Of a stretch of 29,467 bases of DNA, positions 4,656 to 29,467 are shown piece by piece (position 1 is the first letter of the stretch; each line of letters starts with the position of its first letter). The stretch lies in assembly GCA_034723395.1 (NCBI GenBank), contig JAYEOW010000043.1, forward strand, positions 1 through 29,467, read 5' to 3'. The notes beneath the pieces are model-generated. The model was not told the origin of the DNA. It saw only the letters and a list, made by a program, of their open reading frames with translations, and did not search any database. The translations under genes were made by a program, and so were the position numbers. Source of the DNA: Candidatus Margulisiibacteriota bacterium. Lineage in GTDB: Bacteria; Margulisbacteria; WOR-1; O2-12-FULL-45-9.

Positions 4656-4888
4656 GGGATAAATTATGATGGACATGATAGCGCCGGTACAAAATTTAAT
4701 AATACAATCAGATCCAAAGCCTCACAGCGCGTTATCTGCAGATAAGAAGCAATCTAAGCACTTCTGACGATACAATAGCCGACGCCGATCATTATTATGT
4801 CAGCTACATAAGGCCGGCAATGGGCGGAACGCTTGGAATATCGTGGATCCAGGTTGGCTTGGGAGCTATAACCGAAACATCTTCATAA
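4656..4888 (+). pseudogene. Mosaic relic: 5' end of the 649-aa gene + 3' part of a paralog of it + internal fragment of a porV paralog
   Basis: 4656-4710 is identical to 6485-6539. 4706-4776 matches 8328-8398 (59/71 by hand count). 4779-4885 matches 23390-23496 (97/107). Frameshift at the first junction; TAA at 4886. Confidence 0.9.
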
Positions 4889-4900
4889 CTCGAAAAGCCC

Positions 4901-4929
4901 TTGACAGATTAGCAAAAATAAAGCACACT
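4901..4929 (+). promoter_or_regulatory. Sigma70-type promoter TTGACA-N17-CACACT
   Basis: Perfect -35 and 17-nt spacer; an in-frame ATG begins 7 nt after the -10. Confidence 0.6.
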
Positions 4930-4935
4930 TTAGAT

Positions 4936-6494: not shown

Positions 6495-8444
6495 ATGATG
6501 GACATGATAGCGCCGGTACAAAATTTAATAATACAATCAATCCAGAGTGAGGATGGCGGGACGGCGGCAGCTGCCGGGACGGTAGAAAGACCTGCCGCTT
6601 ATGTTACGGCGGACGCTTTGGGGCATTTTGTCGCGGTCGAGACCCCATGGTATAAGAGCGCGATAAACTGGGTTTCTGACGTCTGGAGGGCCAAGTCTGA
6701 CGGCGCTCCGGGCTGCGGGATTGGCGCGGAATTAATGTTCGACAAAGCGCGAAGATCGGATGGAGGGGTAGGTCCCGACGCCTCTGATGGCGGGCCGGAC
6801 GCGGCGGACAGCGGCCCTGACGCGGCGGACGCGGATGCCGGAGTTTGTGTGGACAACAATCCTCCGGGCGTTTTTGGCACTACGCAGCCGGAGGATAACG
6901 CCAGCGATGTTTCACTGCGGCCGACCTTTGAATGGGCCAATTCGACCGATCCGGACGGCCACACGGTCACATACGACCTGATGATCGACACCAACGCGGA
7001 TTTTACCAGCGCGGTTACTTATGACGCGAGTACGCTAAGACAGTACACATTGACCGATCCTCTGGCCGCGGACACGACTTATTACTGGAGGGTAGTGGCG
7101 AGGGATGTTTGTGACGCGGAGACAGTAAGCCTGCCGAGCCCGGCTTTTAGTTTCAAGACTTTGGCCGATTGTTCGACCAATCCTGGGACGTTTGATTTGG
7201 TCGATCCGGCGGACCAGGCCGATTGGGTATCGCTTACGCCGACTTTAGACTGGACCGATTCGCTCGATCTTGATCCCGGGGATACGGTTACTTACCGGCT
7301 GGAGATAGCCGATAATGCCCAGTTTAATAATTCGACAGTTTACTCCGGTTTAACTGAGAGCGCTTATACATTAAATGCCGGGGAGGCTTTGGCAAACGGG
7401 CAGACATATCATTGGCGCGTTTTTGCCGAAGATGACTGCCAGAATGAGGTTGCGAGCACAACTACCTATGAATTTACCACCGAACCTGCCTGTATCCCGC
7501 AGACGATCCTGGAAACCGATTTTGTGACCGGGGATGGGACGGATGTGGTGGTGAATGCGGGAAGTGTTTCATTAGGGGAAGACTATAGTGCTTGGACAGC
7601 TCATTATGAAGGAGATGTTGATCCAACTACTGTTGGCTGGTCAGAACAGGCCTCAAGTGGATGGGTTATCAACCAGATTAATTCAGGGTCTTTGCATCTT
7701 TCAACGATTGGATTGAATGACTCTGGGAGATATGAAAGAAATGCTGTTCCGTTTGGAAATACAAACGGATGGATCATTGAAACAAAAATGAGAGTAGTTA
7801 CGTCAGAACCTGAGGTTGGAAGCGATTATGGCTGTGGAATGGTAATTGGTGATAATAACCGGGTTTTAAGGCCGAGATTTTATACGGATCGAGTTGATAC
7901 AAATGATTATACAGGCCAATTCCTTCTTGATGGAACACAAACCCACACATATCGATTTATAGGGCAGGGCGATGACTTTTTTGTTTATGTTGACGGAAAT
8001 CTTGCTATTGATGGAACAGGCCAAATGGTTATTAATGCTTTAAATAATCGTCTGTATTTTGGTGATATCGGCTCTGACCCAGATTGTGATGCGTATTGGA
8101 ATTATATTTATTATTATACATTGGGTACTTCTTTACCATATGCACCGACAGGAGAATACATCTCCTCAACCTACGATCTCGGAGCCAACCCAAACAACAT
8201 CGGCTCCGGCGCGACGCTGGTCTTTAACGGAAGTGTCCTCCCTTCAACAACAATTACGATCGATACCCGCAGTGGAGATACGGCAATTCCTGACGGTACC
8301 TGGTCGTCCTGGCAGGGATTGAGCGGGAATCAGATCCAAAGCCCTGAGGCACGTTATTTGCAGATAAGAAGTAATTTAAGCGCATCTGATGATACAATTA
8401 CGCCGCAGTTGGATGATTATACGGTAGATTATTGCGCGTATTAA
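6495..8444 (+). CDS. Acidic extracellular-type protein: GCG motif, GPDA linker, two FN3/Ig-like domains, lectin/ConA-like beta module
   Basis: 649 aa, SD GGGGGA. Two P..W..S.D.D...VTY.L.I...YYWRV.A.D repeats. C-terminal ARYLQIRSNL...TPQL domain. No classical signal peptide. Confidence 0.85.
   Translation: MMDMIAPVQNLIIQSIQSEDGGTAAAAGTVERPAAYVTADALGHFVAVETPWYKSAINWVSDVWRAKSDGAPGCGIGAELMFDKARRSDGGVGPDASDGGPDAADSGPDAADADAGVCVDNNPPGVFGTTQPEDNASDVSLRPTFEWANSTDPDGHTVTYDLMIDTNADFTSAVTYDASTLRQYTLTDPLAADTTYYWRVVARDVCDAETVSLPSPAFSFKTLADCSTNPGTFDLVDPADQADWVSLTPTLDWTDSLDLDPGDTVTYRLEIADNAQFNNSTVYSGLTESAYTLNAGEALANGQTYHWRVFAEDDCQNEVASTTTYEFTTEPACIPQTILETDFVTGDGTDVVVNAGSVSLGEDYSAWTAHYEGDVDPTTVGWSEQASSGWVINQINSGSLHLSTIGLNDSGRYERNAVPFGNTNGWIIETKMRVVTSEPEVGSDYGCGMVIGDNNRVLRPRFYTDRVDTNDYTGQFLLDGTQTHTYRFIGQGDDFFVYVDGNLAIDGTGQMVINALNNRLYFGDIGSDPDCDAYWNYIYYYTLGTSLPYAPTGEYISSTYDLGANPNNIGSGATLVFNGSVLPSTTITIDTRSGDTAIPDGTWSSWQGLSGNQIQSPEARYLQIRSNLSASDDTITPQLDDYTVDYCAY
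6771..6833 (+). repeat. 3 x 21-bp imperfect tandem repeat (GPDASDG/GPDAADS/GPDAADA linker)
   Basis: Visible in both DNA and protein. Confidence 0.8.
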
Positions 8445-8588: not shown

Positions 8589-9215
8589 ATGAAAAAAATA
8601 GTAGTTTTATTGGTTATCGGATTGTTGTTATCTGGTATCGTTTTTGCGATGGGGGAGAAACCTCCAAAAATGGATCGAACTGAAATTCCACAAGAATGGA
8701 AAACTTATGTCAGCAAATATGGATTTTCAATATCATATCCTTCAAATTGGCAATTAACGCCGGCTGTAAATGCAAAGTCAATGGAGGAGAGCGAGAGATG
8801 GGCAAAAGAGGGATATGATTCATTCAGTATTTATTCGCCTTCTAATAATTCTAATGCGGGGTTAGCAATTGAATGCTTTACTGATACGGACACAGTAATA
8901 CAATTGTCTTATAAGGATATATCTATTCCTGATGACCCAGCAGGGCGGATATTGTTTTTAGCGAAAGAATCTCCCTTCACCATAAAGTACAAAAAAAATA
9001 TGATTAATAATATAGAAGAAATAAAAGTAAACGGAGGTCAGATATATCTAGTTCATGATAATACCGAATTTTCAGGGACAACAGTACTATTTTATTTAGA
9101 AAAAAAGAAGTTTTTTTGTGTTTTAGATGCCTATTATCCAAGCTCGACCCCAAATAAAGAAAAAGAATATAAGGAGATATTTATTAAGATTGTTAAAACA
9201 ATGAGTATTTTATGA
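8589..9215 (+). CDS. Exported protein, PsbP/Mog1-like start (WKTY..YGFSISYP.NW); candidate immunity/partner protein
   Basis: Sec signal MKKIVVLLVIGLLLSGIVFA, strong SD, AT-rich, ATGA overlap with the giant gene. Confidence 0.8.
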   Translation: MKKIVVLLVIGLLLSGIVFAMGEKPPKMDRTEIPQEWKTYVSKYGFSISYPSNWQLTPAVNAKSMEESERWAKEGYDSFSIYSPSNNSNAGLAIECFTDTDTVIQLSYKDISIPDDPAGRILFLAKESPFTIKYKKNMINNIEEIKVNGGQIYLVHDNTEFSGTTVLFYLEKKKFFCVLDAYYPSSTPNKEKEYKEIFIKIVKTMSIL

Positions 9216-12200
9216 TTAAATGTTTTAAAGTTATTTTAATATTATTCGTTTTATTTTGTAGTACGTCAATGGCGATTGCTGAATTTTCTGTAACCAGGGT
9301 CAAGCCAATTGACTACAACCCCAAAATAGAAAAGTATGGAAATTATATAAACCATAACTATGGTGAATATCGTGGAGGAGCTTCTTATAAATATCACGAC
9401 GGGTTCGATTATTATGCAAGAGGGGATCAGGTACTCCCCGTTTCCCCTGGCACTGCCCACGTTTACCCTGATCTAACAAAGAAAGTAATAAAGTCAACAA
9501 TTCCGGTTAATGAATTTGTTGCAGTTGAGAATTTATTTATTGATCCGACAAAAACGACCTTGGTGTTTAAGCCCAATATCACAGTTGCAAGCATTGAGAG
9601 CTGCTCTATCGTGGATGGAACAAAACTTATTTTGAAACAAGGCTTGGCAGGGGAAAATGAAGGCTGGGGGCATTGTGTTATAGTTGATCATGGAACATTC
9701 CAAACTCGCTATGCTCATTTAAGCAGGATTGATGTGTCAGAGGGGCAATGGGTGGATACTTCAATTGTGTTGGGGTTATCGGGGAACACGGGAAAATCAA
9801 GCGGAGAACATCTTCATTTTAGCATGGGAAATAATGGAGCGACTAAAAATAATCTTGCTCCAACAAACACGGAGAATCCCATACTCGCGGGGTTGAAACA
9901 GCCAAAATACGGTAAGATTGAAAAAGTTGCCTGCCCTAATGGTTTTGACATAAGATTATTAGCAACAGGAAAAGACGGGACATTTGGCGGATCAAACGGT
10001 GTGATCTTGAGCGATGCGAATGAAACGATCAATATTCCGAAACCTGGGCAACCACTAAAAGCAGTTATTAGTGCTTATCATTATACAGGCAGGGCTTATA
10101 CAACTCCGTACAAGATCGAATTTGAAGTTGAAAAGATTAGAGGGGCAAATGATTTTGTTAAACGGAAACGGGAGATTGTATTTGATTCAATTGCCAATAT
10201 TAACAAGATGACCGTTCCGCCGTATGACTTTTCCCGACCTTATGTTACTCAATCTAAAAGGACAGAAGATTATTATTCGGTTAAATTTACGCCGACAGCT
10301 GGAAGATATAGAATTACTGCAAAAATATATTCCTGCTATAGAGATGGTCCAGGCGATACCGGTTTTCATCTGTCTGATCCCCTGGTGGCTGAAAGGGAAA
10401 TAACCGTTGGTTTGAATGGCGCCAATCTCGATTGGTACGATCCTGCTGTTTCCTATGCCTGGTTACCGGACGATATCGCAAGCCGGGGGATTATGCTGGC
10501 CAGTGTGCCGACGCCGGTTGGGGCGGCGGGAGTGACAGCGAGTGATGCAACTGCTACATCAATACCGGAAGTATTCTATGCTTACGCGAACAATAATATT
10601 ATAACCAGTAACCTTATTGACGTTGATCAAAACCTCCAGCAGAAAGCATTAATCGAAGCGCGATCGACGCCGGAAGCGGACTGGCTAATTGAGATCAGGA
10701 ATAAATCCGGAGGACCTCCGGATCGTATTTCTGTCCCCAAATGCGGCTGGTTAAAACAGGAATGGGGCGCCGGGAAATCTGCTGGAGAATATACCATTAC
10801 AGTTACAGCGAGCAACTCCGCGGGGATAACAACTTATGAATCTTATGACACCATTACGATTGATAATACCAAGCCATCCGCGCTGGTTTATACCGTCACA
10901 AACAGCGTATCGACTGCGGAGCAAACAATTTCAACTCGGATCAGGCCATCTGAAAATTTAAGAAGCATGCTTGTCAATGTGGTCAAAGATGGAGATTATA
11001 ATTCTTTAGTTGAAGAAAGGATCTATTCGACTCCTTTTGCCGAAAAGGATAAAGAAGAAGCGGTTGATTGGGAAGACGCTATTGCTTACCCAGATGGCTT
11101 TTATCGCCTGCAATACGTAATGACCGATGTGGCGGGAAATATTGCAAAGGCCTATTCGCCGATCGTATCAGTTGATAAGAGCGGGGATTATACCGCGCCT
11201 TCTACCACAATCGAAGTGTCTGAACCCGCGCTGCCTGAATTGCCGAAATGGGAAGAGCGGCCGAAAGTGTCGGATGTCGCGTTCGACGATTCAGGCAATG
11301 AATATGTGTTATATGGACGCTATGATAAATTAATTAAATATAATTCAGCAGGCACAATGATTGCCTCAGTTGAAAGCCTGCGCAATCCCCTTGGCCTAGC
11401 CGTTTCCCCCTCCGGCGACCGAGTCTATGTAGCGGATACGTATAATAATCGGATGTTGATTTATGATGGGAAGTTACAGCCAATCAAGGAAATTAAAGGG
11501 AAAGATGTTTATGTTATCTATGGTGATGTGGATTCATATAGTTGGGGATTGGGCGGCATGAATCATTCAGGCGATGCTGGGGGTGGCGAGCATAGTTATT
11601 GGGGAGAGCAATTTGGGTTGCCAGAAGATATTGCGATATTAGGTAATAATGTTTATGTTGCAGACAAAGAAAAACATCGCGTCCTGAAATATGATCAAAA
11701 TGGCAAGTGTGAGGTCTTCTCGAAATTAAAGGCCGATTTAAAGAATGAAGCCCGTAATGCTTATAATCAAAATAATGTAATTTCCGGACGAACTGTTGAT
11801 AGAGCGTTATTTTATTCAAATTCTCTGAACGATCATATTTACTTTGATAAAGGTTCGGTTGATAAAAGCTCTTATGATCGCGGATGGATAAAAGAAATGT
11901 ATGGACATGATAATCCTCCTGGAGCGGGCGATAGTCAATTATTTTTACCAGAGTCGGTTATCGTCGATAATTATAGCTACATCTACATCCTCGACACCGG
12001 CAACCACCGCATCCAGAAATTTTCTCCTGATGGCTCTTTTATTTCCAAATTCGGTTCTGAAGGAAGCGGTCCCGGCCAGTTTAAATCACCTCAGGGGATA
12101 TTTATAGACGAAGACAACCACATCTGGGTGGCTGATACCGGGAACCGGAGGATCCAGGAGTTTAAAAATGATGGGACATTTCTTAAATCCTGGGGTAACG

Positions 12201-15200
12201 CGGAGCTGTTAAGCAAACCGTTAAAATTGGTTGTAAGAAAGGTCGGCAAGAATAAGGCGGTCTATGTGGCGGACGGAGATAAGGACGAAGTCCAAATCTT
12301 CGGGGCTTCGCCGCCTACGGACTTTAGTTTGACGGAAACAGGAGAACAGTTCGTTTCCGGCCGAACATTCACTATCAGCTGGGCAACTTCCGAGGCCGAT
12401 TGGTATGGGCTGAAGAAATATGAAGTTTACGGCAGGACTATCTATGAGGGTATGGACGAAAGCAGTGAAGAATCATGGGTATATCTTAAGAAAAACATTT
12501 CTCCCTCGGAAAATTCCGTGGAAATAACTTTGCCTTACGATGGGATATACGATGTTAAAGTAAAAGCTGTTGATAATAATGGAAATTGGAGGGATTCCGA
12601 TGGGGGGTCATCTTCTGGTGATTCAAGAGACTCATCTCGAATCCTTAGGGCGACAATTGATGCTATCCCGCCCCTTGGCTTTACCCTCGAAGATCCGCCA
12701 GATGGTTATTTAATTGACGGTAAAGACGTAAGGATTGCCTGGAGTGAAGCGCAAGACGAGAATCTTGATTATTACGAGCTTGTGGTCGGTATTGATATTG
12801 ATGATATTCACGAATCAGCAATCTATTCCGCGACATTTGAAGCCGCTGCTACCAGGGAAGTCTGGTTGAAAGATTTGCCCATAGGAAAATATTATATTTT
12901 CATGGCCACTTTTGATAAAGCGGGACATTATTGTCAGGTTAACGGAACAACCGACGTTGCGGGATATAGCTGGCCTGATCTTGCTTCTAATTGGGCTGGC
13001 AAATGGCCGTCCTTTGAAATCGATCCCATTCCTCCCTGGGCTTTTTCCATTTCAAATATCTACGATGGCCAGTATTTTGACGACCGTGATGTAAAAATTG
13101 AGTGGAATGAGGCATATGATACGAATTTAGACCATTATGAAGTATATATCGGAACGGAACAGAATAATATAATGGGAAGCGCGGTATTTACGGCATCTAT
13201 TGAGGCTTCAGCCAGCAGGGAGTGTTGGGCGAATCTTCCCGGAGGGACCTATTGGATTTATATGCGCGCCTGTGACGATCTTGGCAACTATCGCGGCCTG
13301 GATGGAAAAACCAATAGTTCAAAACACGATCTGGATCGAACAGATAATTTAGTGTGGTTTGAAATAGACCATGAACCGCCAGATATTGCTTACGATCCAA
13401 CAGTTGCCCCTCCGGCAACTAATCCCCATTTCTCACCGAATAATGACGGCAAGAAGGATTCGACCATTATCAATTATTATGTTGGCGATGATTCCTATTG
13501 GAAAGTTAACTATCTGCGCATGGATGAGGTTTTGATAGATATTGAAGGAGAGATCATAAAGGATGGAGAGGTTGTAAGGAGCTGGACATCCCGTTCGCCG
13601 CCTGGCTGGAATGAGTTTATCTGGGATGGCGGTTCCCCTCTCCCCCTGGGAGAGGGGGCAGGGGTGAGGGCGCCTGACGGCACTTATACTATTAAAATCA
13701 CAGCTGCCGACAAGGCCCTCAACACCGCCGCTGATGAATCGCTTACCGTAGCAGTCGATACCACTCCGCCGGAGATTAATAACATTGTTAACTCCGGAAT
13801 ATTTTCTCCTAATGGGGATGGGGAGTTTGATATAGATACTTTGAGCTTTGAACTATCGGACAATTTAGCAGAAGAACTGGCCACAACCATTGATGTGTTA
13901 AATCCGGCAAATGTTGTAATAAGGAGCGTTGAGGAACCGCGACGTTTAGTCGCAGGTTCCGATTCCATGTCCGTGGTCTGGGATGGCAAAGTGGGTGAGG
14001 TGGTACCTGACGGTGATTATACCTATCTCATCACCACCACCGACCAGGCTGGCAATCAAACCATCAACGATTCGGCATCAGTAACAGTTGATACTACGCC
14101 ACCTGCTTTTTCAGATGTTTCAACCTCTCCAAAGAGAGAAGTTGCTTTTACAGAAGACTCAGGCGCCCTTGATATCAATTTTACCGTTTCAGAAACAGCC
14201 AATGTCAGGATGGGAATCTATGACAGCAATTATTCTATGATCAGAGATTATCTGATTTCTGCTGAAACTGGAATAGCCAATACAATCTCCTGGGACGGGA
14301 GAGACAGCTTCGGTTCGCTTGCCCCGGATAATACTTATATAACCTACGCTTTCTCTGCCACAGACCGGGTGGCAAACTCTTCAGGCTACGCGTCAACCGA
14401 TATTGTGAGGGTTAAAACTCCGGTTACCGGCATGGCTGGAAATATTATATATAGTCCGGATGGAGCGGTGAAGATCATTATCCCCGCGGGCGCGGTAGCG
14501 GAGGGAACAGAACTATATCTTGATATTTTTGATACCCCCCCTGAAACATATACAGTTAACGAGAAGGATAATATTACGTTAACTTATAAACTATATCCTG
14601 AAGACCTTGAATTAAATAAACAGGCGACCATGGTTATCCATTACGATGAGAGCGTCTTGAATTTTGAGCATCAGCCGGTTGAGCTCTGGCGAAGGGGTTC
14701 GGCCTGGACAAAACTATATGGCAATACTCATAGCGATACCTTTACGGCGTATATTGAGAAGAGCGGAGAGTTCGCGTTGTTTGCTGATCTGACTCCGCCG
14801 GCCCCGCCGGTTATTGGTCAGCCGGCTTCTCCAACCAAGGAAGAGTCGATAATCATTGCTGGAACAGCCGAGCCTTATTCGAAGGTAGATTTATGGATCA
14901 ATGGGCTCAAAAGAAGTCCGCCGGTAAATGCTGGCGTTGACGGTAATTTTTCCGCGGGCATAGTCCTTTCGGAGGGCCAGAATTCTATCTATGGACAGGC
15001 GACCGACCAAACCGGTAATGTAAGCTCCGATTCAGGGATTATCAATGTTGAATTAGACACCACCCCTCCGGATATCACTTTAATCTCGCCGCAAACCATT
15101 TATATCTCGCCCAATGGGGATGGAATAAACGATGAGGTGGCAATTTCCGCGGATACCGACGGTGTTTCGATTGTAATCTCCGTGCGGGATAGTCTTGGAG

Positions 15201-18200
15201 CTGTTCTGGCTTCAAGTAATTCGGATACGCTTACCTGGGAAGACCCGTCGGTTGGCGAAGGAACTTATATATATGTGGTTAAAGCCTTTGACGCGCTGGG
15301 AAATGAAGCTAGAAAGCAGGGAGAGATTATTGTTGATAGGACCCTTCCGGAGGCATACCTGGAAGCATCTCCTATAACTTCTATCATCTCAGGCAATCTT
15401 GCCCTTTCGGGAATTGCGGAAGACAGCAATTTTGAAAGATATATTCTGGAATATGGGGCGGGAGGAACTCCATCAAGCTGGACCGAGATCAAACAGGGTT
15501 TTGTCTCGATTAATTATCAAAAATTTGATGACTTTGATACAACTATCCTGGCGGATGGAATTTATACCTTTAGATTAAGGGTCTATGATAAAGCGGGAAA
15601 TTCAAATTCTTCTTTGCTGAGTAAGCGCGCCATCAATTCAGAACTTTATGGAGAGATATCATCACCTGTATTAAATCAGGTGATTACGGGAACGGCTGAG
15701 GTCCATGGAAACATCACCGGAACATATTTTGCGGAATACAGAGTAGAGTATGGAGTTGGGGCAAGCCCCGCTTCCTGGATTACGATTGTGCGCTCTACCA
15801 CTCTCCCGGCAACATCGCTTCTGGCAGCCTGGGATACAAGCCGGGTTCCTGATGGTAATTATACTCTAAGGTTAAATGTGATAAATATTGGTGGGCGTTC
15901 TACTTATAATACTATTCCGGTTGTAGTAGACAACGGAAATCCAGGAGTTTCTATCACTGTTCCGACTTCAAACGCGATCCTTGGAGGAAATATCGAAGTC
16001 GGCGCGGAGATTTCTGATCCGAATTTCTCTTATTATCAAGTCGAATACGCGAGTTCGGATGACCCGAACAATTGGCAAATCATTCAGGATCAGACTTATA
16101 CGATTTCAACTCCTCTGGCAACCTGGGAAACAACGGGGTTAAATGGTGATTATATTATTAAGGTGACAGTGGTTGATGTAGTGGACAATAGTTCATTCGG
16201 CACGGTTATCATCACGGTTGACAATACGACTCCGGAAGCGGCAATTACACAGCCGACTGCGGGTCAGATTTTGAATAATACTGTCCAGATTTCAGGCGCT
16301 GCCAACGATCGGCATTTTTCAGATTACAAATTAGAATATGGTTTTGGGGCTAATCCTGCAAGCTGGACAGAAATCACAACTTCAACTATTCAAGTGGCTG
16401 CTGGAGAACTCGGCAGTTGGGATACGTCTACCTTAGGAACGGATGGGATTTATACCATAAAGCTTACGGTTACCGATCAAGCCGGGAATAGCTCGACCAG
16501 CCCGGTGTCGTTAACCATTGACAATACCAATCCGACCGCTTCGATTGCTTTTCCAACCAATAATCTGGTTATCGCGGATACGGTAAATATTCTTGGAACA
16601 GCGATTGACGAGGCGCACTTTAAGGAATTTAAGGTTGAGTATGGGGAGGGGGAGAATCCTTCCAGCTGGACGCAAATCGGAAACATACACTCTTCCTCAG
16701 TCTTTGGTTCTACCCTTGAAGCTTGGGATACGACCGCGGTAACAGATGGGACCTATACTCTGAAGTTAACAGTCGCGGACTTGCCCGGTAATTCAAGCTT
16801 GGATCAGGCGCCGGTTATTGTAGACAACACGCCGCCGACGGTCTCTATTTCCAATCCTTCTTCCGGAGATATTCTTGCCGGCGCCATAAACATTGCGGGA
16901 ACAGTTTCTGATGACAATCTTGATTCTATACTTTTAGAATATCGGGAAGCTTCCAGTCCCGAATCCTGGCAGGCGATAGCGGCCATAAACCCTTCAAATA
17001 TTGTGAACGATACTATTTATGATTGGAGCGCGTCCAGTCTAAATGGAGATTATATCGTCAGAGTTACCGCAACCGATAAAACCGGGAAAACCACCAGCGA
17101 CGAAGCGGGAATTCGACTGGATAATATTGATCCGGTTATAAATATCACAGCGCCAACCAACGAGTCGATCAATACAGGCGTTGTGGACTTCACTGGAGAA
17201 ATCTCTGATCTAAACCTGGATCAATATACCATCAAATACGGTTACGGTATTGAGCCGACCAGGTGGTTTAGTTTGGCTTCTGACACTGCGTCAAAGACTG
17301 GAACTATATATTCCTGGGATACGCCGAATGTTAAAGATGGTTACTATACAATAAAGGTTGACGCGGCTGACAAAGCAGGAAATTCGTCCAACCGTGAATT
17401 TGTAATAACTATTGATAATGCACCGGCAGTTGCAAAAATTCATGAGCCGACAGCTAACCAGGTTGTAAAAGGAACTGTCGCGGTATCCGGGATTGCCTGT
17501 GATGCTGATTTTACCACGTACAATTTTAAAAAGTATGAAATTAGTGTAGGGGCAGGGCTTGTCCCTGTCCAATGGACAACTATCGAAAGCCTCGTTGTTC
17601 CTAAGATCAATGAGACCTTAGCTAACTGGAATACTGCTCCACTTGCTGATGGAACTTACACTTTGAGGTTGAGAGCGGAAGATATAAGCGGGATAACCGA
17701 AGATACTAAAACAATTGTTATCGACAACACCCTGCCAACCGCTTCAATTTCTTCTCCATCTCAAGGGCAAACCGTAAACGGAAGCATTGAAATAACCGGC
17801 ACAGCTTCGGATACTAATATTGCTGAATATAAAGTTTATTACAAACAATCTAGTTCCAGCACCTGGACAGAGATCGGCAGTGGAACCTCGCCCCTCGTTG
17901 CTTCGACCCTCGCCGCATGGGATACAACAAATGTTGGTGATGGATCATATTCGATAAAGCTTTTGGTAAAAGACCAGGCCGGAAGTGAAAGTGAAATTAC
18001 AAGAGATGTAACGGTTAATAATGATTTAGCAATTGTTAATGACTCAGCATCTCCTGCAATTATATCTCCTAATGGTGACGGAGTAGATGATGTCGCGGAA
18101 ATCGGCTACACTCTTTCTGAAAATAGTCCGGTAACTGTTAAAATCTATAAGAAGCCGCAGTATGATAAGTTTAAGTGGGAAGCGAAGGGGTTTGGGACTT

Positions 18201-21200
18201 ATTATCCATGGCAGGACTTTTCTTATACCATTAACGCATCTGGGACCAATCATCCAAACCAATATTTTGATTATACTTTGAGCGCTTCAGGAACAGAATA
18301 TCCGCCGCAGGTGTTTGATTGGAAGGTGAATGGGTATGGGGTGGAAACTTATTATACTTATTCGCCAAAGACTAGTCCTACCGCATATGCTTATGCAGAT
18401 GATGACAAAGGAGTAGGAGAAAGCTCCACATTTTATCTAAACCATGACCAAACACCAGGACGATTCTACTTTAAAGCTATAGCTGATGGGAACAGTGGTT
18501 GGGATGATGCAAGGAAATATTGGGTATACAGACAAAATGGAAGTGCGTGGGAGGAGGTTTATTACCACCCAACTTATTGCGCAGGGGAATGGAGTTACAT
18601 CGGAAATGCTTCTATTGCAGATAACGGAAGATCGCCTGAATCCACTTTTTATCTTTCGCAAACGAAGTCATTACCGTTTTATGTTGGGACGGATAATAAT
18701 TGCAAAACTTCTGAGATATGGATATACAGGAAAGAAGGAGCCTCCTGGATCACATTTCATCATGAATTAAACCCCGCCGCAAATAAGTGGTTTTGGAAAT
18801 CGCTGACAGGAGGATACCTGTATAAGATTAAGCTTCGAGTAGAACCAAAAAGCGGCACTTATACCAGCGGTGGATTTTACGTGGATAACTTTACTTGGTC
18901 CGCAGGGACTTATAAATTAAAGGTATGGCTCGATGTAGGAATGTGGGATAGTTGCCATGTATATATGTGGATGGATTATAAGCAGAAAAATACATTATAT
19001 TCAAATGTTTCCGACTCCGATTCAGGAAAAGCTACAGTTGATCGAAATAACAATATTGTTTCAGGAAGTGGTAGTGATGCCTATGGCATAACTCTTTCGC
19101 CTCAACATCCGGGCGGCGCCATCAGCGGACATGAGATTGGTCGGGGATATGGAAATTATTATCATGACTATGCAGCCAACCCCTACGTTTCAACTTCTAT
19201 AAGCAACACCACATTTAGCGGAAACACCTGTTCTGGAACAATCAATGCCAGTTATAATTATCCTGGCCATTTGTGGAGTAGTAGCGTGAATCCAAATAAC
19301 AAGAGCTGTAGATCGGGACCAGGCAGTCCTGTAAATTATTCCGAAAGTATAAACAGTCTTATTGCTGTTGATCCGGATGTTCCTAGTCCCAACTTTGCTC
19401 TTTCTGGTAATACGAACTCAAGGGTTTCTCTACACTTCAGTAACGATGGGGCGTCTGTTGTGGGGAGTACTTCTTATGCTCCATCTTGGAGTGGTTCGGA
19501 CAATGATCCAGATTCCTGTAATGCTTTGCAAGGAACAATTACTGTTTCAGAATCGATGTCTAATAAATTTGGCGCTCCAAACGCCTATCCTGATTACAGA
19601 GAATATTCAAGCTTTTCAGTCTCCGATAATAATCCAAATGTTTCGGTTTGGTTTAACAATAGCGGCACAACTTCGACCTCTGATCCGAGTGATTATTTAA
19701 GAGCGAGCACTACGTATTCCGAATCCTGGGATACCTCTGATGATCCGGCGATAGGGAGTGCTGGCTGGATAAAAAGCGTAGAAATTTCGGCGCCGTTTAA
19801 CTACGACGAATCGTCTCAATCGTTTTCAACTGAATATACGCCTCCTTCAGATGTGGTTCTGAGCAGCTGGACGGTAAACCTTAAGAACCCCGATGGAGGA
19901 GCAAGCGCAGATGTTGCGCTGGATGGCACACCAACCGCAGCCGGAGACTTTAATGTTAAAATCTCCGACAGCTTATTGGTCAAGACCCTACAATACAATG
20001 CTTCAACTTCTCCTGGCAATCAAACAATCGAATGGGACGGCAAAAATAATAGCGGAGCCTATGTTGACGACGGAGAATATATCTATTACATTTACGCTGG
20101 ACCAAACATTGTTAAAAAATCTGGCGTGATTAAGGTCGAAAGGTCTTCAGAAATTAGCTCCACTTCATTATCAGAAGAATATATTTCTCCGAACAGTGAC
20201 GGGATAAAAGATAGTACAGCTATCAGCTACACGCTCTCAGAAAACGCTACAGTTAATATTGAAGTATCAGACAGTGATGGAACAGTTGTTAAATCTTTCT
20301 CTGCTTCTGGGAATCAAGGTGCTAATTCATCTTCCTGGGATGGCAGGGATAATGGTGGAACTGTAGTGGAAGACGGAGAATATTTGGTTAAAATAAACGC
20401 GACTAACGGTAATGGCGCTTTGCGTACCAAAGAACTTGCAGTAACTAAAGATAACAATAGCTTGACAGCAGGGGATGTCCCGGCAGAACAGCTTACATCT
20501 TCAGGCAATGATCCGGTTTACTCCCCGGACAAATCAAAAATCGCTTATGTGAAAGATATATCCGGCAAGAAACAAATACACACAATGAATCTACTTACAA
20601 CTAACAACTTACAACTAACAACTGACGGCAATAACCTGCAGCCAGCATGGTCTCCGGATGGAACAAAGTTAACCTGTACTTCAGACCGTTCGGGTAACAA
20701 TGACATTTGGATTATGGATGCTGATGGAGGCAATCAAAGGCAAATAACTTCCGATAATGATTCGGAGACTTCGCCGGCTTTTTCGCCGGACGGACAAAGG
20801 ATTGCTTATGCTTCAAATCGAACCGGAGAACTTGGTATTAACAAATGGAATATCTGGACGGTGGATCTGGACGGCACAAATCCAGCTCAAATAACCGCGG
20901 ATGAGAATACGGCCAAAGATGACTATCCGAGCTTTTCGCCGGACGGGAAAAAGATCGCTTTTGCTTCGGACCAAAGCGGGAATTTTGATGTTTGGAGTGT
21001 GAATCTCGATGGCAGCTCTAAAGCACAGATAACATCAAGTTCGGAAACAGAAACAATGCCTGCCTGGGCTCCAGATGCCTTAAAAATTGTTTACGCGAGA
21101 GATAACGATATATATCTTAGAGAGCTTTCAGGCGGGAGCGAAGTAAACATCGGAAGCGGAGAAAATCCTGCCTGGTCAAGAGACGGAACGGAGGTTGTCT

Positions 21201-23086
21201 ATAACACGACGGACGGCAAAATCTACGCTAAAAAAGTTTATACAGGAGCGCTGACCGGGGTTATAACTCAGCCTATCCTAAATCAAACCCTAACCGGCCT
21301 GGCTGAGATTCGTGGAACGGCGCTAGACACGAATTTCGAAAGCTATCAGCTTGAGTTCAGTCCAAACAGCATGCCCTATAGCTGGACAGAACTGGCTAAT
21401 TCAAACACCCCAGTCAGCAATGGAATTCTCGGGGTTTGGAATACGGCAGATGTTCAGGATGGAGAATATATCCTGCGGTTAACTGTTAATGATAAAGCGG
21501 GAAATAGTTTGCAGAATTCCGTTGTGGTGAATGCCGATAATGACAACTGGAAACTGACCATAACCGATCTAAAACAGTTAACTTCTGATGAAGCCTGGGA
21601 TATTGAGCCCGCCTGGTCGCCGGATGGAACCAAGCTTGCTTTCTCTTCAATCCGATCCGGTAACTATGAGATCTGGACAATGAATGCGAATGGGACCGGA
21701 TTGCAGAATATTACCAATAATTCAGCTTTAGATGTTAAACCATCCTGGTCGCCGGACGGAACTAAGGTTGCCTTTGTTTCAGACAGGTCAGGAAATAAAG
21801 ATATCTGGGTAGCAAACGCGGATGGCTCCGGAGTTCCGCTGCAATTAACTGTACTTACCATAGTAGATACAAATCCAACCTGGGCCCCTGATGGCTCAAA
21901 GATTGCCTTTGCCTCAGACCGGTCGGGTAACTTTGATATCTGGCTGGTTAATTCCGACGGGACCGGGACTCCGGCCAAACTTACTTCCGGCGAAGCCTTT
22001 GATAAAGAGCCAAGCTGGTCGCAATTTGGAATTGCCTTTACTTCGGACAGATCAGGCGATAAAGAAATCTGGATGATTGAAGATATCAATAACCCCAATC
22101 CATTCAGGTTGACCTATAATTCGGCTGAAGATAAAGAGCCTAGTTGGGCGCCAATTGCTATTCCGCTTTCTGATGGAACCAGCCGCCCGCTAATAACATT
22201 TACTTCCACCCGAAATGATAATCTCGATATCTGGGTGATGGATACAGACGGGATCGATCAGTCAAAGTCACTGACCGATTATACAAATGTTGATTGTAAT
22301 CCCGCCTGGTCGCCGGATGGGTCCAGAGTTGCCTATGCCTCTTATAAAGACGGCCAGTACGATATCTGGGTGATGAATTTTGGTATTAATGCCACGGTGT
22401 TGGGCGTCGCGCCGCAGCAATCCACCACCCTCGAAACCCCAACCCTTGTCTCGCCGGACGACGATTCAGATGTAACCTCCCTCCGCCCGACTTTTGAGTG
22501 GCAGCACAGAAAAGGAGACACCCAGGAATATACGATCGATCTGGCTAAGAACGATAGTTTTGCGATCGATCACCAAACCTTTACCAAGTCTCCCAATACC
22601 GGATCGGTCGATGAAAATGATCCGACCCTTTATCATTACACCTACTCGATTCATGAATTCGATCCGGGATTAGACAGGGATACGTATTACTGGAAAGTTA
22701 CCGCAACCTCAACCAGCGAATCAGCAACGTCCGAGGTCCGGTCATTCACCGTTGCGCCGCAACTGACCCTAACCGGCGTCACCAACTATCCAAACCCGTT
22801 CAACCCGAATAACCAATCGACCAGTATCCGCTATCGGTTGGGCGCGGACGCGGACAGCGTAAAGATCAGGATCTATGATATTACCGGCTCGCTGGTCAAG
22901 CAGATCGATAATTGCCCGACCGACGGCGAAGGATCAAGCGTATGGAGTAAATATCAGGACGTTGATTGGAACGGCCGTAACGGCCGCGGAGATTTGGTGA
23001 GGAACGGGATCTATCCTTTTGAGATTATTGCGCGATTGGGAGATAAGTCGGTCTCCGCGAGAGGCAAGGTAGCGGTGCTGAAATGA
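9212..23086 (+). CDS. Giant (4624 aa) secreted multidomain protein: signal peptide, M23 metallopeptidase, NHL propeller, FN3, FlgD/SPNGDG Ig domains, ~10 Big-like repeats, two PD40/TolB propellers, C-terminal T9SS type A/FlgD-like sorting domain
   Basis: HDGFD...YAHL...GNTGKSSGEHLHF (M23). VYVADTYNNR and DTGNHRIQKF (NHL). Repeated P.WSPDG.K (PD40). Ends NYPNPFNP...IRIYDITGSLVK...WNGRN...NGIY...GKVAVLK. Confidence 0.93.
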   Translation: MIKCFKVILILFVLFCSTSMAIAEFSVTRVKPIDYNPKIEKYGNYINHNYGEYRGGASYKYHDGFDYYARGDQVLPVSPGTAHVYPDLTKKVIKSTIPVNEFVAVENLFIDPTKTTLVFKPNITVASIESCSIVDGTKLILKQGLAGENEGWGHCVIVDHGTFQTRYAHLSRIDVSEGQWVDTSIVLGLSGNTGKSSGEHLHFSMGNNGATKNNLAPTNTENPILAGLKQPKYGKIEKVACPNGFDIRLLATGKDGTFGGSNGVILSDANETINIPKPGQPLKAVISAYHYTGRAYTTPYKIEFEVEKIRGANDFVKRKREIVFDSIANINKMTVPPYDFSRPYVTQSKRTEDYYSVKFTPTAGRYRITAKIYSCYRDGPGDTGFHLSDPLVAEREITVGLNGANLDWYDPAVSYAWLPDDIASRGIMLASVPTPVGAAGVTASDATATSIPEVFYAYANNNIITSNLIDVDQNLQQKALIEARSTPEADWLIEIRNKSGGPPDRISVPKCGWLKQEWGAGKSAGEYTITVTASNSAGITTYESYDTITIDNTKPSALVYTVTNSVSTAEQTISTRIRPSENLRSMLVNVVKDGDYNSLVEERIYSTPFAEKDKEEAVDWEDAIAYPDGFYRLQYVMTDVAGNIAKAYSPIVSVDKSGDYTAPSTTIEVSEPALPELPKWEERPKVSDVAFDDSGNEYVLYGRYDKLIKYNSAGTMIASVESLRNPLGLAVSPSGDRVYVADTYNNRMLIYDGKLQPIKEIKGKDVYVIYGDVDSYSWGLGGMNHSGDAGGGEHSYWGEQFGLPEDIAILGNNVYVADKEKHRVLKYDQNGKCEVFSKLKADLKNEARNAYNQNNVISGRTVDRALFYSNSLNDHIYFDKGSVDKSSYDRGWIKEMYGHDNPPGAGDSQLFLPESVIVDNYSYIYILDTGNHRIQKFSPDGSFISKFGSEGSGPGQFKSPQGIFIDEDNHIWVADTGNRRIQEFKNDGTFLKSWGNAELLSKPLKLVVRKVGKNKAVYVADGDKDEVQIFGASPPTDFSLTETGEQFVSGRTFTISWATSEADWYGLKKYEVYGRTIYEGMDESSEESWVYLKKNISPSENSVEITLPYDGIYDVKVKAVDNNGNWRDSDGGSSSGDSRDSSRILRATIDAIPPLGFTLEDPPDGYLIDGKDVRIAWSEAQDENLDYYELVVGIDIDDIHESAIYSATFEAAATREVWLKDLPIGKYYIFMATFDKAGHYCQVNGTTDVAGYSWPDLASNWAGKWPSFEIDPIPPWAFSISNIYDGQYFDDRDVKIEWNEAYDTNLDHYEVYIGTEQNNIMGSAVFTASIEASASRECWANLPGGTYWIYMRACDDLGNYRGLDGKTNSSKHDLDRTDNLVWFEIDHEPPDIAYDPTVAPPATNPHFSPNNDGKKDSTIINYYVGDDSYWKVNYLRMDEVLIDIEGEIIKDGEVVRSWTSRSPPGWNEFIWDGGSPLPLGEGAGVRAPDGTYTIKITAADKALNTAADESLTVAVDTTPPEINNIVNSGIFSPNGDGEFDIDTLSFELSDNLAEELATTIDVLNPANVVIRSVEEPRRLVAGSDSMSVVWDGKVGEVVPDGDYTYLITTTDQAGNQTINDSASVTVDTTPPAFSDVSTSPKREVAFTEDSGALDINFTVSETANVRMGIYDSNYSMIRDYLISAETGIANTISWDGRDSFGSLAPDNTYITYAFSATDRVANSSGYASTDIVRVKTPVTGMAGNIIYSPDGAVKIIIPAGAVAEGTELYLDIFDTPPETYTVNEKDNITLTYKLYPEDLELNKQATMVIHYDESVLNFEHQPVELWRRGSAWTKLYGNTHSDTFTAYIEKSGEFALFADLTPPAPPVIGQPASPTKEESIIIAGTAEPYSKVDLWINGLKRSPPVNAGVDGNFSAGIVLSEGQNSIYGQATDQTGNVSSDSGIINVELDTTPPDITLISPQTIYISPNGDGINDEVAISADTDGVSIVISVRDSLGAVLASSNSDTLTWEDPSVGEGTYIYVVKAFDALGNEARKQGEIIVDRTLPEAYLEASPITSIISGNLALSGIAEDSNFERYILEYGAGGTPSSWTEIKQGFVSINYQKFDDFDTTILADGIYTFRLRVYDKAGNSNSSLLSKRAINSELYGEISSPVLNQVITGTAEVHGNITGTYFAEYRVEYGVGASPASWITIVRSTTLPATSLLAAWDTSRVPDGNYTLRLNVINIGGRSTYNTIPVVVDNGNPGVSITVPTSNAILGGNIEVGAEISDPNFSYYQVEYASSDDPNNWQIIQDQTYTISTPLATWETTGLNGDYIIKVTVVDVVDNSSFGTVIITVDNTTPEAAITQPTAGQILNNTVQISGAANDRHFSDYKLEYGFGANPASWTEITTSTIQVAAGELGSWDTSTLGTDGIYTIKLTVTDQAGNSSTSPVSLTIDNTNPTASIAFPTNNLVIADTVNILGTAIDEAHFKEFKVEYGEGENPSSWTQIGNIHSSSVFGSTLEAWDTTAVTDGTYTLKLTVADLPGNSSLDQAPVIVDNTPPTVSISNPSSGDILAGAINIAGTVSDDNLDSILLEYREASSPESWQAIAAINPSNIVNDTIYDWSASSLNGDYIVRVTATDKTGKTTSDEAGIRLDNIDPVINITAPTNESINTGVVDFTGEISDLNLDQYTIKYGYGIEPTRWFSLASDTASKTGTIYSWDTPNVKDGYYTIKVDAADKAGNSSNREFVITIDNAPAVAKIHEPTANQVVKGTVAVSGIACDADFTTYNFKKYEISVGAGLVPVQWTTIESLVVPKINETLANWNTAPLADGTYTLRLRAEDISGITEDTKTIVIDNTLPTASISSPSQGQTVNGSIEITGTASDTNIAEYKVYYKQSSSSTWTEIGSGTSPLVASTLAAWDTTNVGDGSYSIKLLVKDQAGSESEITRDVTVNNDLAIVNDSASPAIISPNGDGVDDVAEIGYTLSENSPVTVKIYKKPQYDKFKWEAKGFGTYYPWQDFSYTINASGTNHPNQYFDYTLSASGTEYPPQVFDWKVNGYGVETYYTYSPKTSPTAYAYADDDKGVGESSTFYLNHDQTPGRFYFKAIADGNSGWDDARKYWVYRQNGSAWEEVYYHPTYCAGEWSYIGNASIADNGRSPESTFYLSQTKSLPFYVGTDNNCKTSEIWIYRKEGASWITFHHELNPAANKWFWKSLTGGYLYKIKLRVEPKSGTYTSGGFYVDNFTWSAGTYKLKVWLDVGMWDSCHVYMWMDYKQKNTLYSNVSDSDSGKATVDRNNNIVSGSGSDAYGITLSPQHPGGAISGHEIGRGYGNYYHDYAANPYVSTSISNTTFSGNTCSGTINASYNYPGHLWSSSVNPNNKSCRSGPGSPVNYSESINSLIAVDPDVPSPNFALSGNTNSRVSLHFSNDGASVVGSTSYAPSWSGSDNDPDSCNALQGTITVSESMSNKFGAPNAYPDYREYSSFSVSDNNPNVSVWFNNSGTTSTSDPSDYLRASTTYSESWDTSDDPAIGSAGWIKSVEISAPFNYDESSQSFSTEYTPPSDVVLSSWTVNLKNPDGGASADVALDGTPTAAGDFNVKISDSLLVKTLQYNASTSPGNQTIEWDGKNNSGAYVDDGEYIYYIYAGPNIVKKSGVIKVERSSEISSTSLSEEYISPNSDGIKDSTAISYTLSENATVNIEVSDSDGTVVKSFSASGNQGANSSSWDGRDNGGTVVEDGEYLVKINATNGNGALRTKELAVTKDNNSLTAGDVPAEQLTSSGNDPVYSPDKSKIAYVKDISGKKQIHTMNLLTTNNLQLTTDGNNLQPAWSPDGTKLTCTSDRSGNNDIWIMDADGGNQRQITSDNDSETSPAFSPDGQRIAYASNRTGELGINKWNIWTVDLDGTNPAQITADENTAKDDYPSFSPDGKKIAFASDQSGNFDVWSVNLDGSSKAQITSSSETETMPAWAPDALKIVYARDNDIYLRELSGGSEVNIGSGENPAWSRDGTEVVYNTTDGKIYAKKVYTGALTGVITQPILNQTLTGLAEIRGTALDTNFESYQLEFSPNSMPYSWTELANSNTPVSNGILGVWNTADVQDGEYILRLTVNDKAGNSLQNSVVVNADNDNWKLTITDLKQLTSDEAWDIEPAWSPDGTKLAFSSIRSGNYEIWTMNANGTGLQNITNNSALDVKPSWSPDGTKVAFVSDRSGNKDIWVANADGSGVPLQLTVLTIVDTNPTWAPDGSKIAFASDRSGNFDIWLVNSDGTGTPAKLTSGEAFDKEPSWSQFGIAFTSDRSGDKEIWMIEDINNPNPFRLTYNSAEDKEPSWAPIAIPLSDGTSRPLITFTSTRNDNLDIWVMDTDGIDQSKSLTDYTNVDCNPAWSPDGSRVAYASYKDGQYDIWVMNFGINATVLGVAPQQSTTLETPTLVSPDDDSDVTSLRPTFEWQHRKGDTQEYTIDLAKNDSFAIDHQTFTKSPNTGSVDENDPTLYHYTYSIHEFDPGLDRDTYYWKVTATSTSESATSEVRSFTVAPQLTLTGVTNYPNPFNPNNQSTSIRYRLGADADSVKIRIYDITGSLVKQIDNCPTDGEGSSVWSKYQDVDWNGRNGRGDLVRNGIYPFEIIARLGDKSVSARGKVAVLK
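13635..13671 (+). repeat. REP-like palindrome inserted in frame (SPLPLGEGAGVRA)
   Basis: Hairpin CCCCTCTCCC-CCT-GGGAGAGGGG followed by GGGGTGAGGGC; same family as 29188-29295. Confidence 0.8.
20593..20626 (+). repeat. Heptamer tandem repeat (ACTTACA/ACTAACA) inside the CDS
   Basis: acttaca actaaca acttaca actaaca actgac, within LLTTNNLQLTTD. Confidence 0.75.
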
Positions 23087-24060
23087 GAAATAAAATCCTA
23101 ATGACCAAATCCCAAATCCCAACAATGTATGTCCTGCGGGCATTTATTATAATAATTATTTCATTGTTTGGATTTTTGATTTTTGATTTTGGATTTAATA
23201 TAGCGTACGCTCAAGCTCAGGGAGGACAAGACATCGCCGTCCTTAAGGCCGGCGTAGGCGCCCGTCCCTTAGGAATGGGCGGCGCATTCACCGCCGTAGC
23301 TGACACCGCCGATGCTCCATGCTGGAATCCGGGCGGCCTTGGTTTTGTTGACGATAACGAGATTACGTCAATGCAAACTAAGCTTTCAACCGACGCCGAT
23401 CATTATTACGTTAGTTATGTACGGCCTGCATTTGGCGGAACGCTTGGAATATCGTGGATCCAGGTTGGCTTGGGAACTATAACCGAAACATCTTCAGAAG
23501 TAGATGAACACAATGAAGTAATCGACCTGAGTACTTTTAGCTATTTTTCAAACGCGTATATGCTCTCATACGGTAAAAAGGTAAGTGAAAAACTATCTCT
23601 CGGATTAACCGCGCAATATTTGACTTCGGATATGACAAGTATCGACGGCGGACAGGCTTCTGGTTATAGCATAACACCAGGACTGCTTTTGAGGACAGGA
23701 AAAGGGTGGAACATCGGATTAAAAGTTGAAGGGGTTATCAATTCCTTGCAGTGGGGGACGGGGACGGTTGAGCAGGCGCCTGCCAAATTATGCTTAGGGT
23801 TTGCATACCAGAAGTCGAACCCTGGATTATTCGCGATCGATATTTCGCAAACAATGAAGTCCGGTTATGTTCCTGAAGCTTCGGTTGGCTACGAATGGAA
23901 TAAAGATAGTTTGTCTCTTCGGCTCGGATATGTCGAAAGCGGTTTAACTGCCGGAGCTGGATTTGTTTCAGGGAATGCCAGAGTCGATTACGCTTATATC
24001 ACCCAGAGGAATCTTACGACCTCTAATGTGCATAGGATTTCATTGACTGGGATTTGGTAA
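23083..24060 (+). CDS. porV: PorV/UPF0164-family outer-membrane beta-barrel (T9SS shuttle-like)
   Basis: Signature GVGARPLGMGGAFTAVAD...WNPGGL, plus LRLGY, VDYAY and terminal HRISLTGIW. ATGA overlap with the giant gene. Confidence 0.85.
   Translation: MRNKILMTKSQIPTMYVLRAFIIIIISLFGFLIFDFGFNIAYAQAQGGQDIAVLKAGVGARPLGMGGAFTAVADTADAPCWNPGGLGFVDDNEITSMQTKLSTDADHYYVSYVRPAFGGTLGISWIQVGLGTITETSSEVDEHNEVIDLSTFSYFSNAYMLSYGKKVSEKLSLGLTAQYLTSDMTSIDGGQASGYSITPGLLLRTGKGWNIGLKVEGVINSLQWGTGTVEQAPAKLCLGFAYQKSNPGLFAIDISQTMKSGYVPEASVGYEWNKDSLSLRLGYVESGLTAGAGFVSGNARVDYAYITQRNLTTSNVHRISLTGIW
23093..23196 (+). repeat. Inverted heptamer arrays (AAATCCC-type then TTGGATT/TTTGATT-type) in the porV signal-peptide region
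   Basis: aaatcct aatgacc aaatccc aaatccc ... ttggatt tttgatt tttgatt ttggatt. Confidence 0.65.
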
Positions 24061-29312: not shown

Positions 29313-29319
29313 TGCGCAA

Positions 29320-29347
29320 ATAGTAACATAATAAAAAACGCTGTCAA
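29320..29347 (-). promoter_or_regulatory. Sigma70 promoter TTGACA-N16-(TGn)TACTAT, with the -35 supplied by the IS terminus
   Basis: The minus strand reads TTGACA gcgttttttattatgt TACTAT ttgcgca ATG. Confidence 0.6.
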
Positions 29348-29467
29348 GGCAAAGTAAAAATGTCCGGTTCTTAGCAAAATGAAAATGTCCGGTTTTTAAG
29401 CATGAACAAACCTCCTTCTTGATACGCTGAATCTTCTCCAAGGGTGGCTTTTAGGTAGGGGATAATA
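29342..29467 (-). mobile_element. Right end of an ISNCY/IS1202-type insertion sequence (partial)
   Basis: Terminus TGTC. Two 25-bp subterminal direct repeats containing AAAATGTCCGGTT (29349-29373, 29374-29398). Minus-strand ORF tail YYPLPKSHPWRRFSVSRRRFVHA* (29396-29467) carries the P..HPWR motif typical of these transposase C-termini. Confidence 0.72.

Follow-up and report, generated by a model that had tools for sequence, protein, structure and literature searches.

A giant secreted protein of a Margulisbacterium carries a mosaic M23 peptidase head linked to an upstream exported protein with a predicted PsbP-like fold

The window analysed in this study is an entire contig of 29,467 bp (GenBank assembly GCA_034723395.1, contig JAYEOW010000043.1) of Candidatus Margulisiibacteriota bacterium, whose genome (G000) comprises 1.68 Mb and is 97% complete. 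Its plus strand carries a small open reading frame (ORF) encoding an exported protein of 208 amino acids (aa), hereafter the partner, followed by a giant ORF encoding a secreted protein of 4624 aa. The giant begins with an M23 metallopeptidase domain, hereafter the head, and ends in a conserved C-terminal module; a gene for a PorV/PorQ-family outer-membrane barrel starts at its stop (Table 1). A prediction made from the letters of the window alone, the original prediction, had described the pair as an inverted polymorphic toxin, i.e. an N-terminal peptidoglycan hydrolase with its immunity gene upstream. Here, comparison with related genomes and metagenome loci supports the view that the head and its partner form a single cassette in inheritance and in replacement, presumably by recombination, with orphan arrays of older cassettes upstream.

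The two genes overlap by ATGA (9212-9215), and both proteins begin with a signal-peptide-like segment, as judged by eye from the translations. The GC content is 0.327 in the small gene and 0.388 in the head (residues 1-215), as compared to 0.453 in the remainder of the giant gene and in the genome, and this gradient from partner over head to rest is repeated in all five orthologous loci. Pfam Peptidase_M23 (PF01551) matches the giant with 56.2 bits (cut-off 28.7) at residues 146-211, corresponding to profile positions 27-93. The match is only partial because an insertion of about 55 aa interrupts the domain and thereby places the first zinc motif some 80 residues further upstream; among the rows compared, this insertion is otherwise present only in the full-length gene of genome G118 and in a 218-aa orphan head of genome G132. 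We take the zinc and catalytic signature of M23 to be HxxxD, a central H and HxH, which here correspond to HDGFD (residues 62-66, nucleotides 9395-9409), His169 (9716-9718) and HLH (residues 200-202, nucleotides 9809-9817). H62, D66, H169, H200 and H202 are invariant in 17/17 and 9/9 aligned relatives in two alignments, therefore the enzyme looks active; judged by its residues the head is catalytically intact, and activity on peptidoglycan is predicted. An intact M23 zinc site right after the signal peptide of the giant, a small exported gene coupled to it by ATGA and a higher AT content of both genes than of their surroundings had all been pointed out in the original prediction, and they stand. 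The closest NCBIfam likenesses of the head are the housekeeping endopeptidases Pgp3, MepM and ShyA, all far below cut-off, and the source genome contains four other M23 genes. A single-sequence AlphaFold2 (AF2) model of residues 1-413 reached a predicted local distance difference test (pLDDT) score of 36.5 and was not used.

Profile searches in 146 genomes of the phylum found the partner in 10 and the head in 16 genomes (E<=1e-20 for the head). The hidden Markov model (HMM) of the head built here missed the divergent head of G136, which scores 66 bits with Pfam M23; therefore, censuses made with this HMM undercount. Five genomes of the order to which the window belongs have both partner and head (G000, G118, G126, G129 and G132), and in these a partner gene is directly followed by an M23-head gene or fragment in 11/11 instances. 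A metagenome set of 13 loci was found by the partner motif. Six of them were excluded as near-duplicates of G132, G129 and G118 (L100-L103, L105, L106) and one ends too early to be assessed (L111); the others (L099, L104, L107, L108, L109, L110) show the same adjacency for 9/9 partner genes. The partner-head pair also occurs in two loci of the genome collection. With 20/20 cases linked, we reject chance as the reason why the two genes are neighbours. The PsbP-linked heads form one clade (support 100/99); since the PsbP-linked kin share labels, this clade shows co-inheritance and not co-evolution.

In three of the genomes, further modules lie upstream of the full-length gene. Three extra modules precede the 3379-aa gene of G132, each composed of a partner and a head, the latter being 218 aa, a 77-aa fragment and 447 aa long; G126 has two extra modules (466 aa and 111 aa) and G129 has one (73 aa). 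One orphan module each is found in the metagenome loci L099, L104 and L107. The orphan heads align to the full-length gene until a break at residue ~70-466; the few residues read beyond it are unrelated and come from the leader of the cassette that follows. A full-length partner ORF (199-240 aa) is kept in 8/8 modules with heads shorter than 240 aa. Moreover, a counterpart of the module orphaned in G129, 86% identical to it in both the partner and the head fragment, precedes a long head in L109. The arrays, the breaks and the allele that is orphaned in one strain and active in another are as predicted if incoming cassettes displaced older ones in succession. Of the head fragments, three that come from different sources (G132_f77, G129_f73 and L110_f74) share a common end junction, HDGMDYQAG..SVSIKR, which suggests either a single displacement event common to them or a favoured breakpoint.

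Alignment of the five full-length orthologues shows conservation at both ends, in the first ~1000 residues and, at 58-73% identity per 100-residue window, in the last 225; residues 1000-4400 in between are only 5-39% identical and contain many indels. Conservation in the N-terminal block is lowest in the head; it is highest in the following beta domain and neck, which form the zone of mosaic breakpoints. Between G129 and G132, which belong to the same genus, identity falls from 89% (beta domain) over 80% (neck) and 68% (M23) to 38% (partner). Nonsynonymous divergence (dN) of this pair is 0.095 in residues 216-560, 0.265 in M23 and 0.605 in the partner. The nearest relative of the window giant changes along its length: G132/G129 for the M23 core, G118 for residues 211-285 and G126 for residues 406-525. 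Informative sites, compared by Fisher tests with bounds chosen after viewing the data, gave p-values from 0.03 to 1e-12, the lowest for M23 core (G132) versus neck (G126) (table [[32,2],[12,46]]). In the comparison of homologues that the original prediction had suggested, an invariant N-terminus without a linked small gene was not found. The upstream gene is strictly linked (11/11 and 9/9), exported and fast-evolving, with the 38% identity of the G129 and G132 partners, and the cassette arrays, the mosaic heads and the alleles of G129 and L109 agree with the expectation that head and upstream gene vary together.

A large sequence search with the 208-aa partner retrieved only three relatives in 5.8 billion clusters, one of them named PsbP-related protein by NCBI in a Margulisiibacteriota metagenome-assembled genome. 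Pfam PsbP_2 (PF18933) scores 19.6 bits on the partner, below the cut-off of 27; six relatives score 27.2, 28.2 and 31.3 (over the cut-off) and 26.6, 24.7 and 17.2 (under it), and the matches in the relatives are confined to the first ~70 profile positions. An AF2 model of the partner from a 13-sequence alignment has a pLDDT of 72.4. Foldseek with this model gave CyanoP as best match (E 2e-5), and VIA-align superimposed it on PsbP (2xb3) with Z 10.6 and a root mean square deviation of 3.6 over 139 residues. The next neighbours, within one to two Z units, are LpqN, Mog1, TplEi (9.7), SciW (9.0), Tsi3 (8.9), EagT6 (8.6) and DcrB (8.0). A protein atlas search with the partner likewise led to PsbP clusters. 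Solved structures, searched with a profile of the partner alignment, returned matches at chance level only, the best being a beta-lactamase with E 0.0015. The model and its neighbours indicate that the partner adopts a PsbP-like alpha/beta sandwich (PsbP/Mog1) fold. This fold class holds the periplasmic immunity proteins Tsi3 and TplEi of type VI secretion systems (T6SS) as well as the Eag chaperones SciW and EagT6 and therefore cannot separate these two roles. A lipobox is present in most relatives of the partner; the window partner and two others carry an ordinary signal peptide instead (by eye).

Regarding export, the C-terminal domain (CTD) of the giant is of FlgD_ig type. It scores 18.9 against PF18962 (cut-off 27) and 21.1 against TIGR04183 (cut-off 23), and the C-terminus is similar, below cut-off, to the C-terminal portions of the models for PorU and PorZ. 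The gene that follows matches NF033709 with 107.4 bits (cut-off 90). Such a barrel is found at the same position in the orthologous loci of G118, G126, G129 and G132 and also follows a related giant of G131 and an S8 giant of G086. The source genome contains 17 PorV-family matches, five of them over the cut-off, and about ten such C-terminal domains, several of them in adjacent pairs; pairs of a CTD protein followed by a PorV-family barrel occur on contigs C4, C11, C35 and C46 (L054, L056, L062, L065, L067). The original prediction had proposed delivery by a system like that of type IX secretion (T9SS), and a canonical T9SS was not found. In the source genome, SprA (TIGR04189) reaches at best 35 bits (cut-off 200) and PorU (NF033707) 54 bits (cut-off 420), the latter in the CTD part only, and GldK (TIGR03525) has no match. 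For all three models the control genomes are below cut-off as well, so that absence is unproven. The Pfam SprA_N profile is uninformative, having no match in any control genome either. Since the core T9SS models remain below cut-off, we call the route CTD plus PorV-like barrel, and not T9SS.

A second, small cargo of the cluster is a 291-aa protein (24272-25147, plus strand) encoded directly after the PorV-like gene, with a C-terminal T9SS-type sorting domain (TIGR04183, 28.7 bits, cut-off 23). A 1430-aa protein, encoded at 25149-29441 on the minus strand and convergent with the operon, contains a SprA/Sov-like segment at residues 254-315 (TIGR04189, 40.6 bits, cut-off 200) besides weak phage-tail-like matches; this SprA segment is also matched by two further large proteins from the same genome (C29, C33). 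The 1430-aa protein may be a reduced translocon, or its SprA match may be due to chance.

Table 1. Features of the partner, giant and barrel genes in the 29,467-bp window
Feature	Position	Strand	Basis or remark
Exported partner, 208 aa, predicted PsbP/Mog1 fold	8589..9215	+	N-terminal signal-peptide-like segment, without lipobox cysteine
Giant secreted protein, 4624 aa	9212..23086	+	ORF, Pfam, orthologue alignment
Signal-peptide-like segment, giant residues 1-23, ending AIA|EF	9212..9280	+	By eye
M23 metallopeptidase head, residues about 24-232	9281..9907	+	Pfam 56.2 bits, invariant catalytic/zinc residues
Insertion of ~55 aa within M23 domain, between HxxxD strand and core	9473..9646	+	Alignments
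Family-specific beta domain and neck, residues about 233-680	9908..11251	+	Alignments
NHL / six-bladed propeller, approximate bounds	11249..12301	+	Pfam NHL, SGL, DUF5128, TolB_like
Hypervariable stalk: Big_13, FlgD_ig, CHU_C-like, Y_Y_Y and PD40 repeats	12302..22408	+	Pfam
Conserved 225-aa C-terminal module ending in FlgD_ig / T9SS-CTD-like domain	22409..23083	+	Orthologue identity
PorV/PorQ-family outer-membrane barrel, start overlaps stop of giant	23083..24060	+	NF033709

The 225-aa C-terminal module is not limited to giants with this head. It is matched in 61/146 genomes of the phylum, often in several giants per genome. Distant M23-headed relatives are found in G082, G086, G090, G115, G121 and G136 and in a 1078-aa gene of G132. 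Upstream of these heads lie other exported proteins, namely a family of ~420 aa and lipoproteins of ~240 aa; hhalign of the PsbP-type partners with these two families aligned only the signal peptides. The exported family of ~420-446 aa, which carries a conserved 'YTGTNETLSEALY' stretch, is encoded directly upstream of a second clade of M23 heads (L022 226-1488 region, L032, L034, L044) and matches no Pfam family.

Other enzymes occur at the N-terminus as well. A 3365-aa giant of G086 (L074/L078, C1 about 923,200-935,000) has an S8 subtilase head (204.7 bits), is 49.6% identical to the window giant in the C-terminal module and 31% in the NHL region, and is followed by a PorV-like gene. Two genes upstream of it, an exported 166-aa BsuPI proteinase inhibitor is encoded (88.7 bits), and an exported 405-aa protein of no known family is also encoded upstream. 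Among 13 further module-bearing N-termini, three score over the cut-off for a PGAP1-like hydrolase, one scores just under it and three show the motif by eye. PGAP1-like alpha/beta-hydrolase heads on giants with the same C-terminal module were observed in L081, L083, L084, L086 and L091. Directly upstream of the giant, L081, L083 and L084 encode a similar lipoprotein of 285-320 aa (shared motif by eye, without Pfam family), with its stop overlapping the start of the giant in L081 and L083. Giants that combine the same module with other N-terminal hydrolases and with upstream exported genes of their own support the original prediction in this respect.

For the function of the unit we tentatively favour a reading to which we give slightly less than even chances, in which a lytic head displayed at the cell surface is paired with a periplasmic partner that specifically neutralises it. 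The exported PsbP-fold protein, the giant secreted protein and the PorV-family barrel would form a three-gene unit. The giant would be exported by Sec and most likely displayed on the surface by means of its C-terminal module and the dedicated barrel, with the M23 endopeptidase head at the outer end of its long, variable stalk. In the periplasm, the partner would bind the head, most likely neutralising M23 during transit of the giant through the wall compartment of the producer. The AT-rich cassette of head and partner would be exchanged by recombination in the conserved neck, and the older cassette would be pushed upstream, its head truncated and its partner intact; retained orphan partners may protect against the heads of relatives. 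A periplasmic neutraliser is the most economical role for the partner because of the analogy to the S8 giant and its BsuPI inhibitor, because the fold has members with immunity function and because partners are kept beside dead heads. Use of the head against the walls of other cells is plausible. The most far-reaching formulation would see a class of inverted-polarity polymorphic effectors, CTD-plus-PorV giants with exchangeable N-terminal heads (M23, S8, lipase-like), cognate upstream immunity and 5' orphan arrays, in which the PsbP fold provides the first immunity or inhibitor family for M23; this we consider doubtful. The inverted polymorphic toxin of the original prediction is thus supported in part: the intact N-terminal M23 site, the linked upstream gene and their inheritance as a cassette are borne out, toxicity, immunity and contact-dependent delivery are putative, and a single enzyme family and giants without an enzymatic head do not fit it.

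Several observations weigh against a weapon with dedicated immunity. All heads of the window clade are M23 and not different toxin folds, and we recognised no domain that could take M23 across the outer membrane of a diderm target. Six of the 13 further N-termini are without a recognisable enzymatic head (five with NHL, Ig or FG-GAP, one of no known type), therefore the architecture appears as a general scaffold for surface proteins and not as a dedicated toxin carrier. Ratios of nonsynonymous to synonymous divergence (dN/dS) are below 1 (0.09-0.33 in diverged pairs, with dS saturated for most pairs), hence positive selection is not seen at this resolution. As the genomes are kin, the linkage counts overstate independence, and co-inheritance of adjacent genes is expected regardless of function. 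Five weak PsbP_2-like matches to the N-terminal motif (L011-L015) have no M23 neighbour in the available DNA, which amounts to 1.8 kb in total for L011 and to 1.5-kb flanks for L012-L015. Finally, the conserved residues of the partner sit in a structural N-terminal motif and are uninformative on an inhibitory surface.

Some of these points are shared by the reading of the giant as a feeding or adhesion surface protein, with variability driven by phage or grazer pressure and a partner that guards the producer only, without any antagonism. Digestive-type heads (S8, PGAP1-like) and non-enzymatic N-termini on the same C-terminal module would fit such a protein, as would hypervariability of the whole extracellular stalk and not of the head alone, the small genome of 1.68 Mb and the lack of a recognised module for crossing an outer membrane. 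Displacement that keeps old partners, together with an allele active in one strain and orphaned in another, is however a hallmark of conflict systems, and the partner diverges faster than every other part; we therefore regard this alternative as rather unlikely. Even less can be said for the M23 head cutting the wall of the producer itself, for assembly or tethering of the giant, with the lipoprotein partner as a regulator as for LytM-type enzymes. The likeness of the head to housekeeping endopeptidases, far below cut-off though it is the best in NCBIfam, and the fact that most partners are lipoproteins would suit this role. But for housekeeping there are four other M23 genes in the genome, mosaic heads, AT-rich cassettes and orphan arrays are not predicted by it, and the distribution is patchy (partner in 10/146, head in 16/146 genomes), which makes it very improbable.

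The partner could also be an Eag-like export chaperone or adaptor, which keeps the head transport-competent or passes it to outer-membrane machinery. SciW (Z 9.0) and EagT6 (Z 8.6) are among its structural neighbours, and Eag genes share the directly upstream position and the translational coupling. Eag chaperones are cytoplasmic and bind transmembrane helices. Unlike these Eag (DUF1795) proteins, the window partner and its relatives bear an export signal, i.e. a signal peptide or a lipobox (by eye). A pure cis-chaperone would moreover not be needed beside truncated heads, where intact partners persist, and the neighbour of the S8 giant that belongs to a known family is an inhibitor. On the other hand, PsbP/MOG1-like genes beside T6SS toxin genes have been given a proposed adaptor role in a passage of Zhang et al. 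2012 (PMC3482391). Altogether a chaperone seems unlikely to us, and a periplasmic neutraliser remains the reading that we favour.

The locus resembles the CdiA-CT/CdiI pairs of contact-dependent inhibition (CDI) and Rhs systems, as far as these are covered by the matched passages on C-terminal polymorphic toxins in Zhang et al. 2012 (PMC3482391). A large exported protein with an apparently exchangeable enzymatic end and a linked, fast-evolving partner is common to both, and so are displaced truncated end domains with intact partners and, probably, recombination in the conserved adjoining region. In CDI and Rhs, however, the toxin is C-terminal and immunity lies downstream, whereas here the head is N-terminal and partner and orphans lie upstream; here there is also a single head family (M23) and a route by Sec, C-terminal sorting module and PorV-family barrel, and toxicity and immunity are putative. 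Tsi3/Tse3 and TplEi/TplE likewise combine an exported protein of PsbP/Mog1-like fold with a wall- or envelope-degrading enzyme encoded beside it; they differ by the lack of sequence similarity and by the M23 endopeptidase sitting here on a Sec-exported giant. We know of no proteinaceous PsbP-fold inhibitor of M23, and the searches that we made in the literature were not set up to rule one out.

T9SS cargo, according to the excerpts on type B CTDs with PorP-like proteins (PMC9143113) and on the PorV shuttle (PMC5562754), shares the C-terminal sorting domain and the downstream barrel, but here the barrel is PorV/PorQ and not PorP, and the host phylum is not Bacteroidota. Very large proteins from uncultured bacteria have been reported by West-Roberts et al. 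(bioRxiv 10.1101/2023.11.21.568195). In the matched passages of that report, Margulisbacteria are among the phyla rich in very large genes, and Omnitrophota giants have N-terminal S8 or C39 domains; like the giant of the window, such proteins are very large and secreted, with an N-terminal peptidase near the signal peptide. Its text does not mention M23, and the matched passages contain neither a partner gene nor cassette arrays. Our literature searches, supplements aside, returned no N-terminal variable head with upstream partner arrays, the nearest being, from the part of the source that was matched, the TANFOR toxins (PMC7073777). Searches on M23 in Margulisbacteria gave unrelated papers only, those on type IX secretion in Margulisbacteria gave none, and those on T9SS with interbacterial immunity proteins and peptidoglycan hydrolases gave nothing matching.

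If the proposed reading is true, the toxin-immunity cassette logic of CDI, Rhs and the effectors of type VI and type VII secretion systems would extend to an exchangeable N-terminal end. It would reach a little-studied sister phylum of Cyanobacteria by an export route that is new for such cassettes, a C-terminal sorting domain plus PorV-like barrel, and homology-guided displacement could then build orphan arrays 5' of a gene. The partners would further be candidates for a family of proteins that inhibit M23 peptidoglycan hydrolases. Whether or not the giant is a weapon, partner, head, neck, C-terminal module and barrel constitute a conserved module, which opens the giant genes of Margulisbacteria to experiment via small recombinant fragments.

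The remaining part of the window, upstream of the partner, encodes proteins of other kinds. Two Ser/Thr protein kinase genes lie at 2-1108 and 3304-4653 (plus strand), and the two ORFs between them (164 and 552 aa) gave no family matches. They are followed by a DUF4143/AAA_14 ATPase at 4843-6165 and by a 649-aa Ig-domain protein at 6495-8444.

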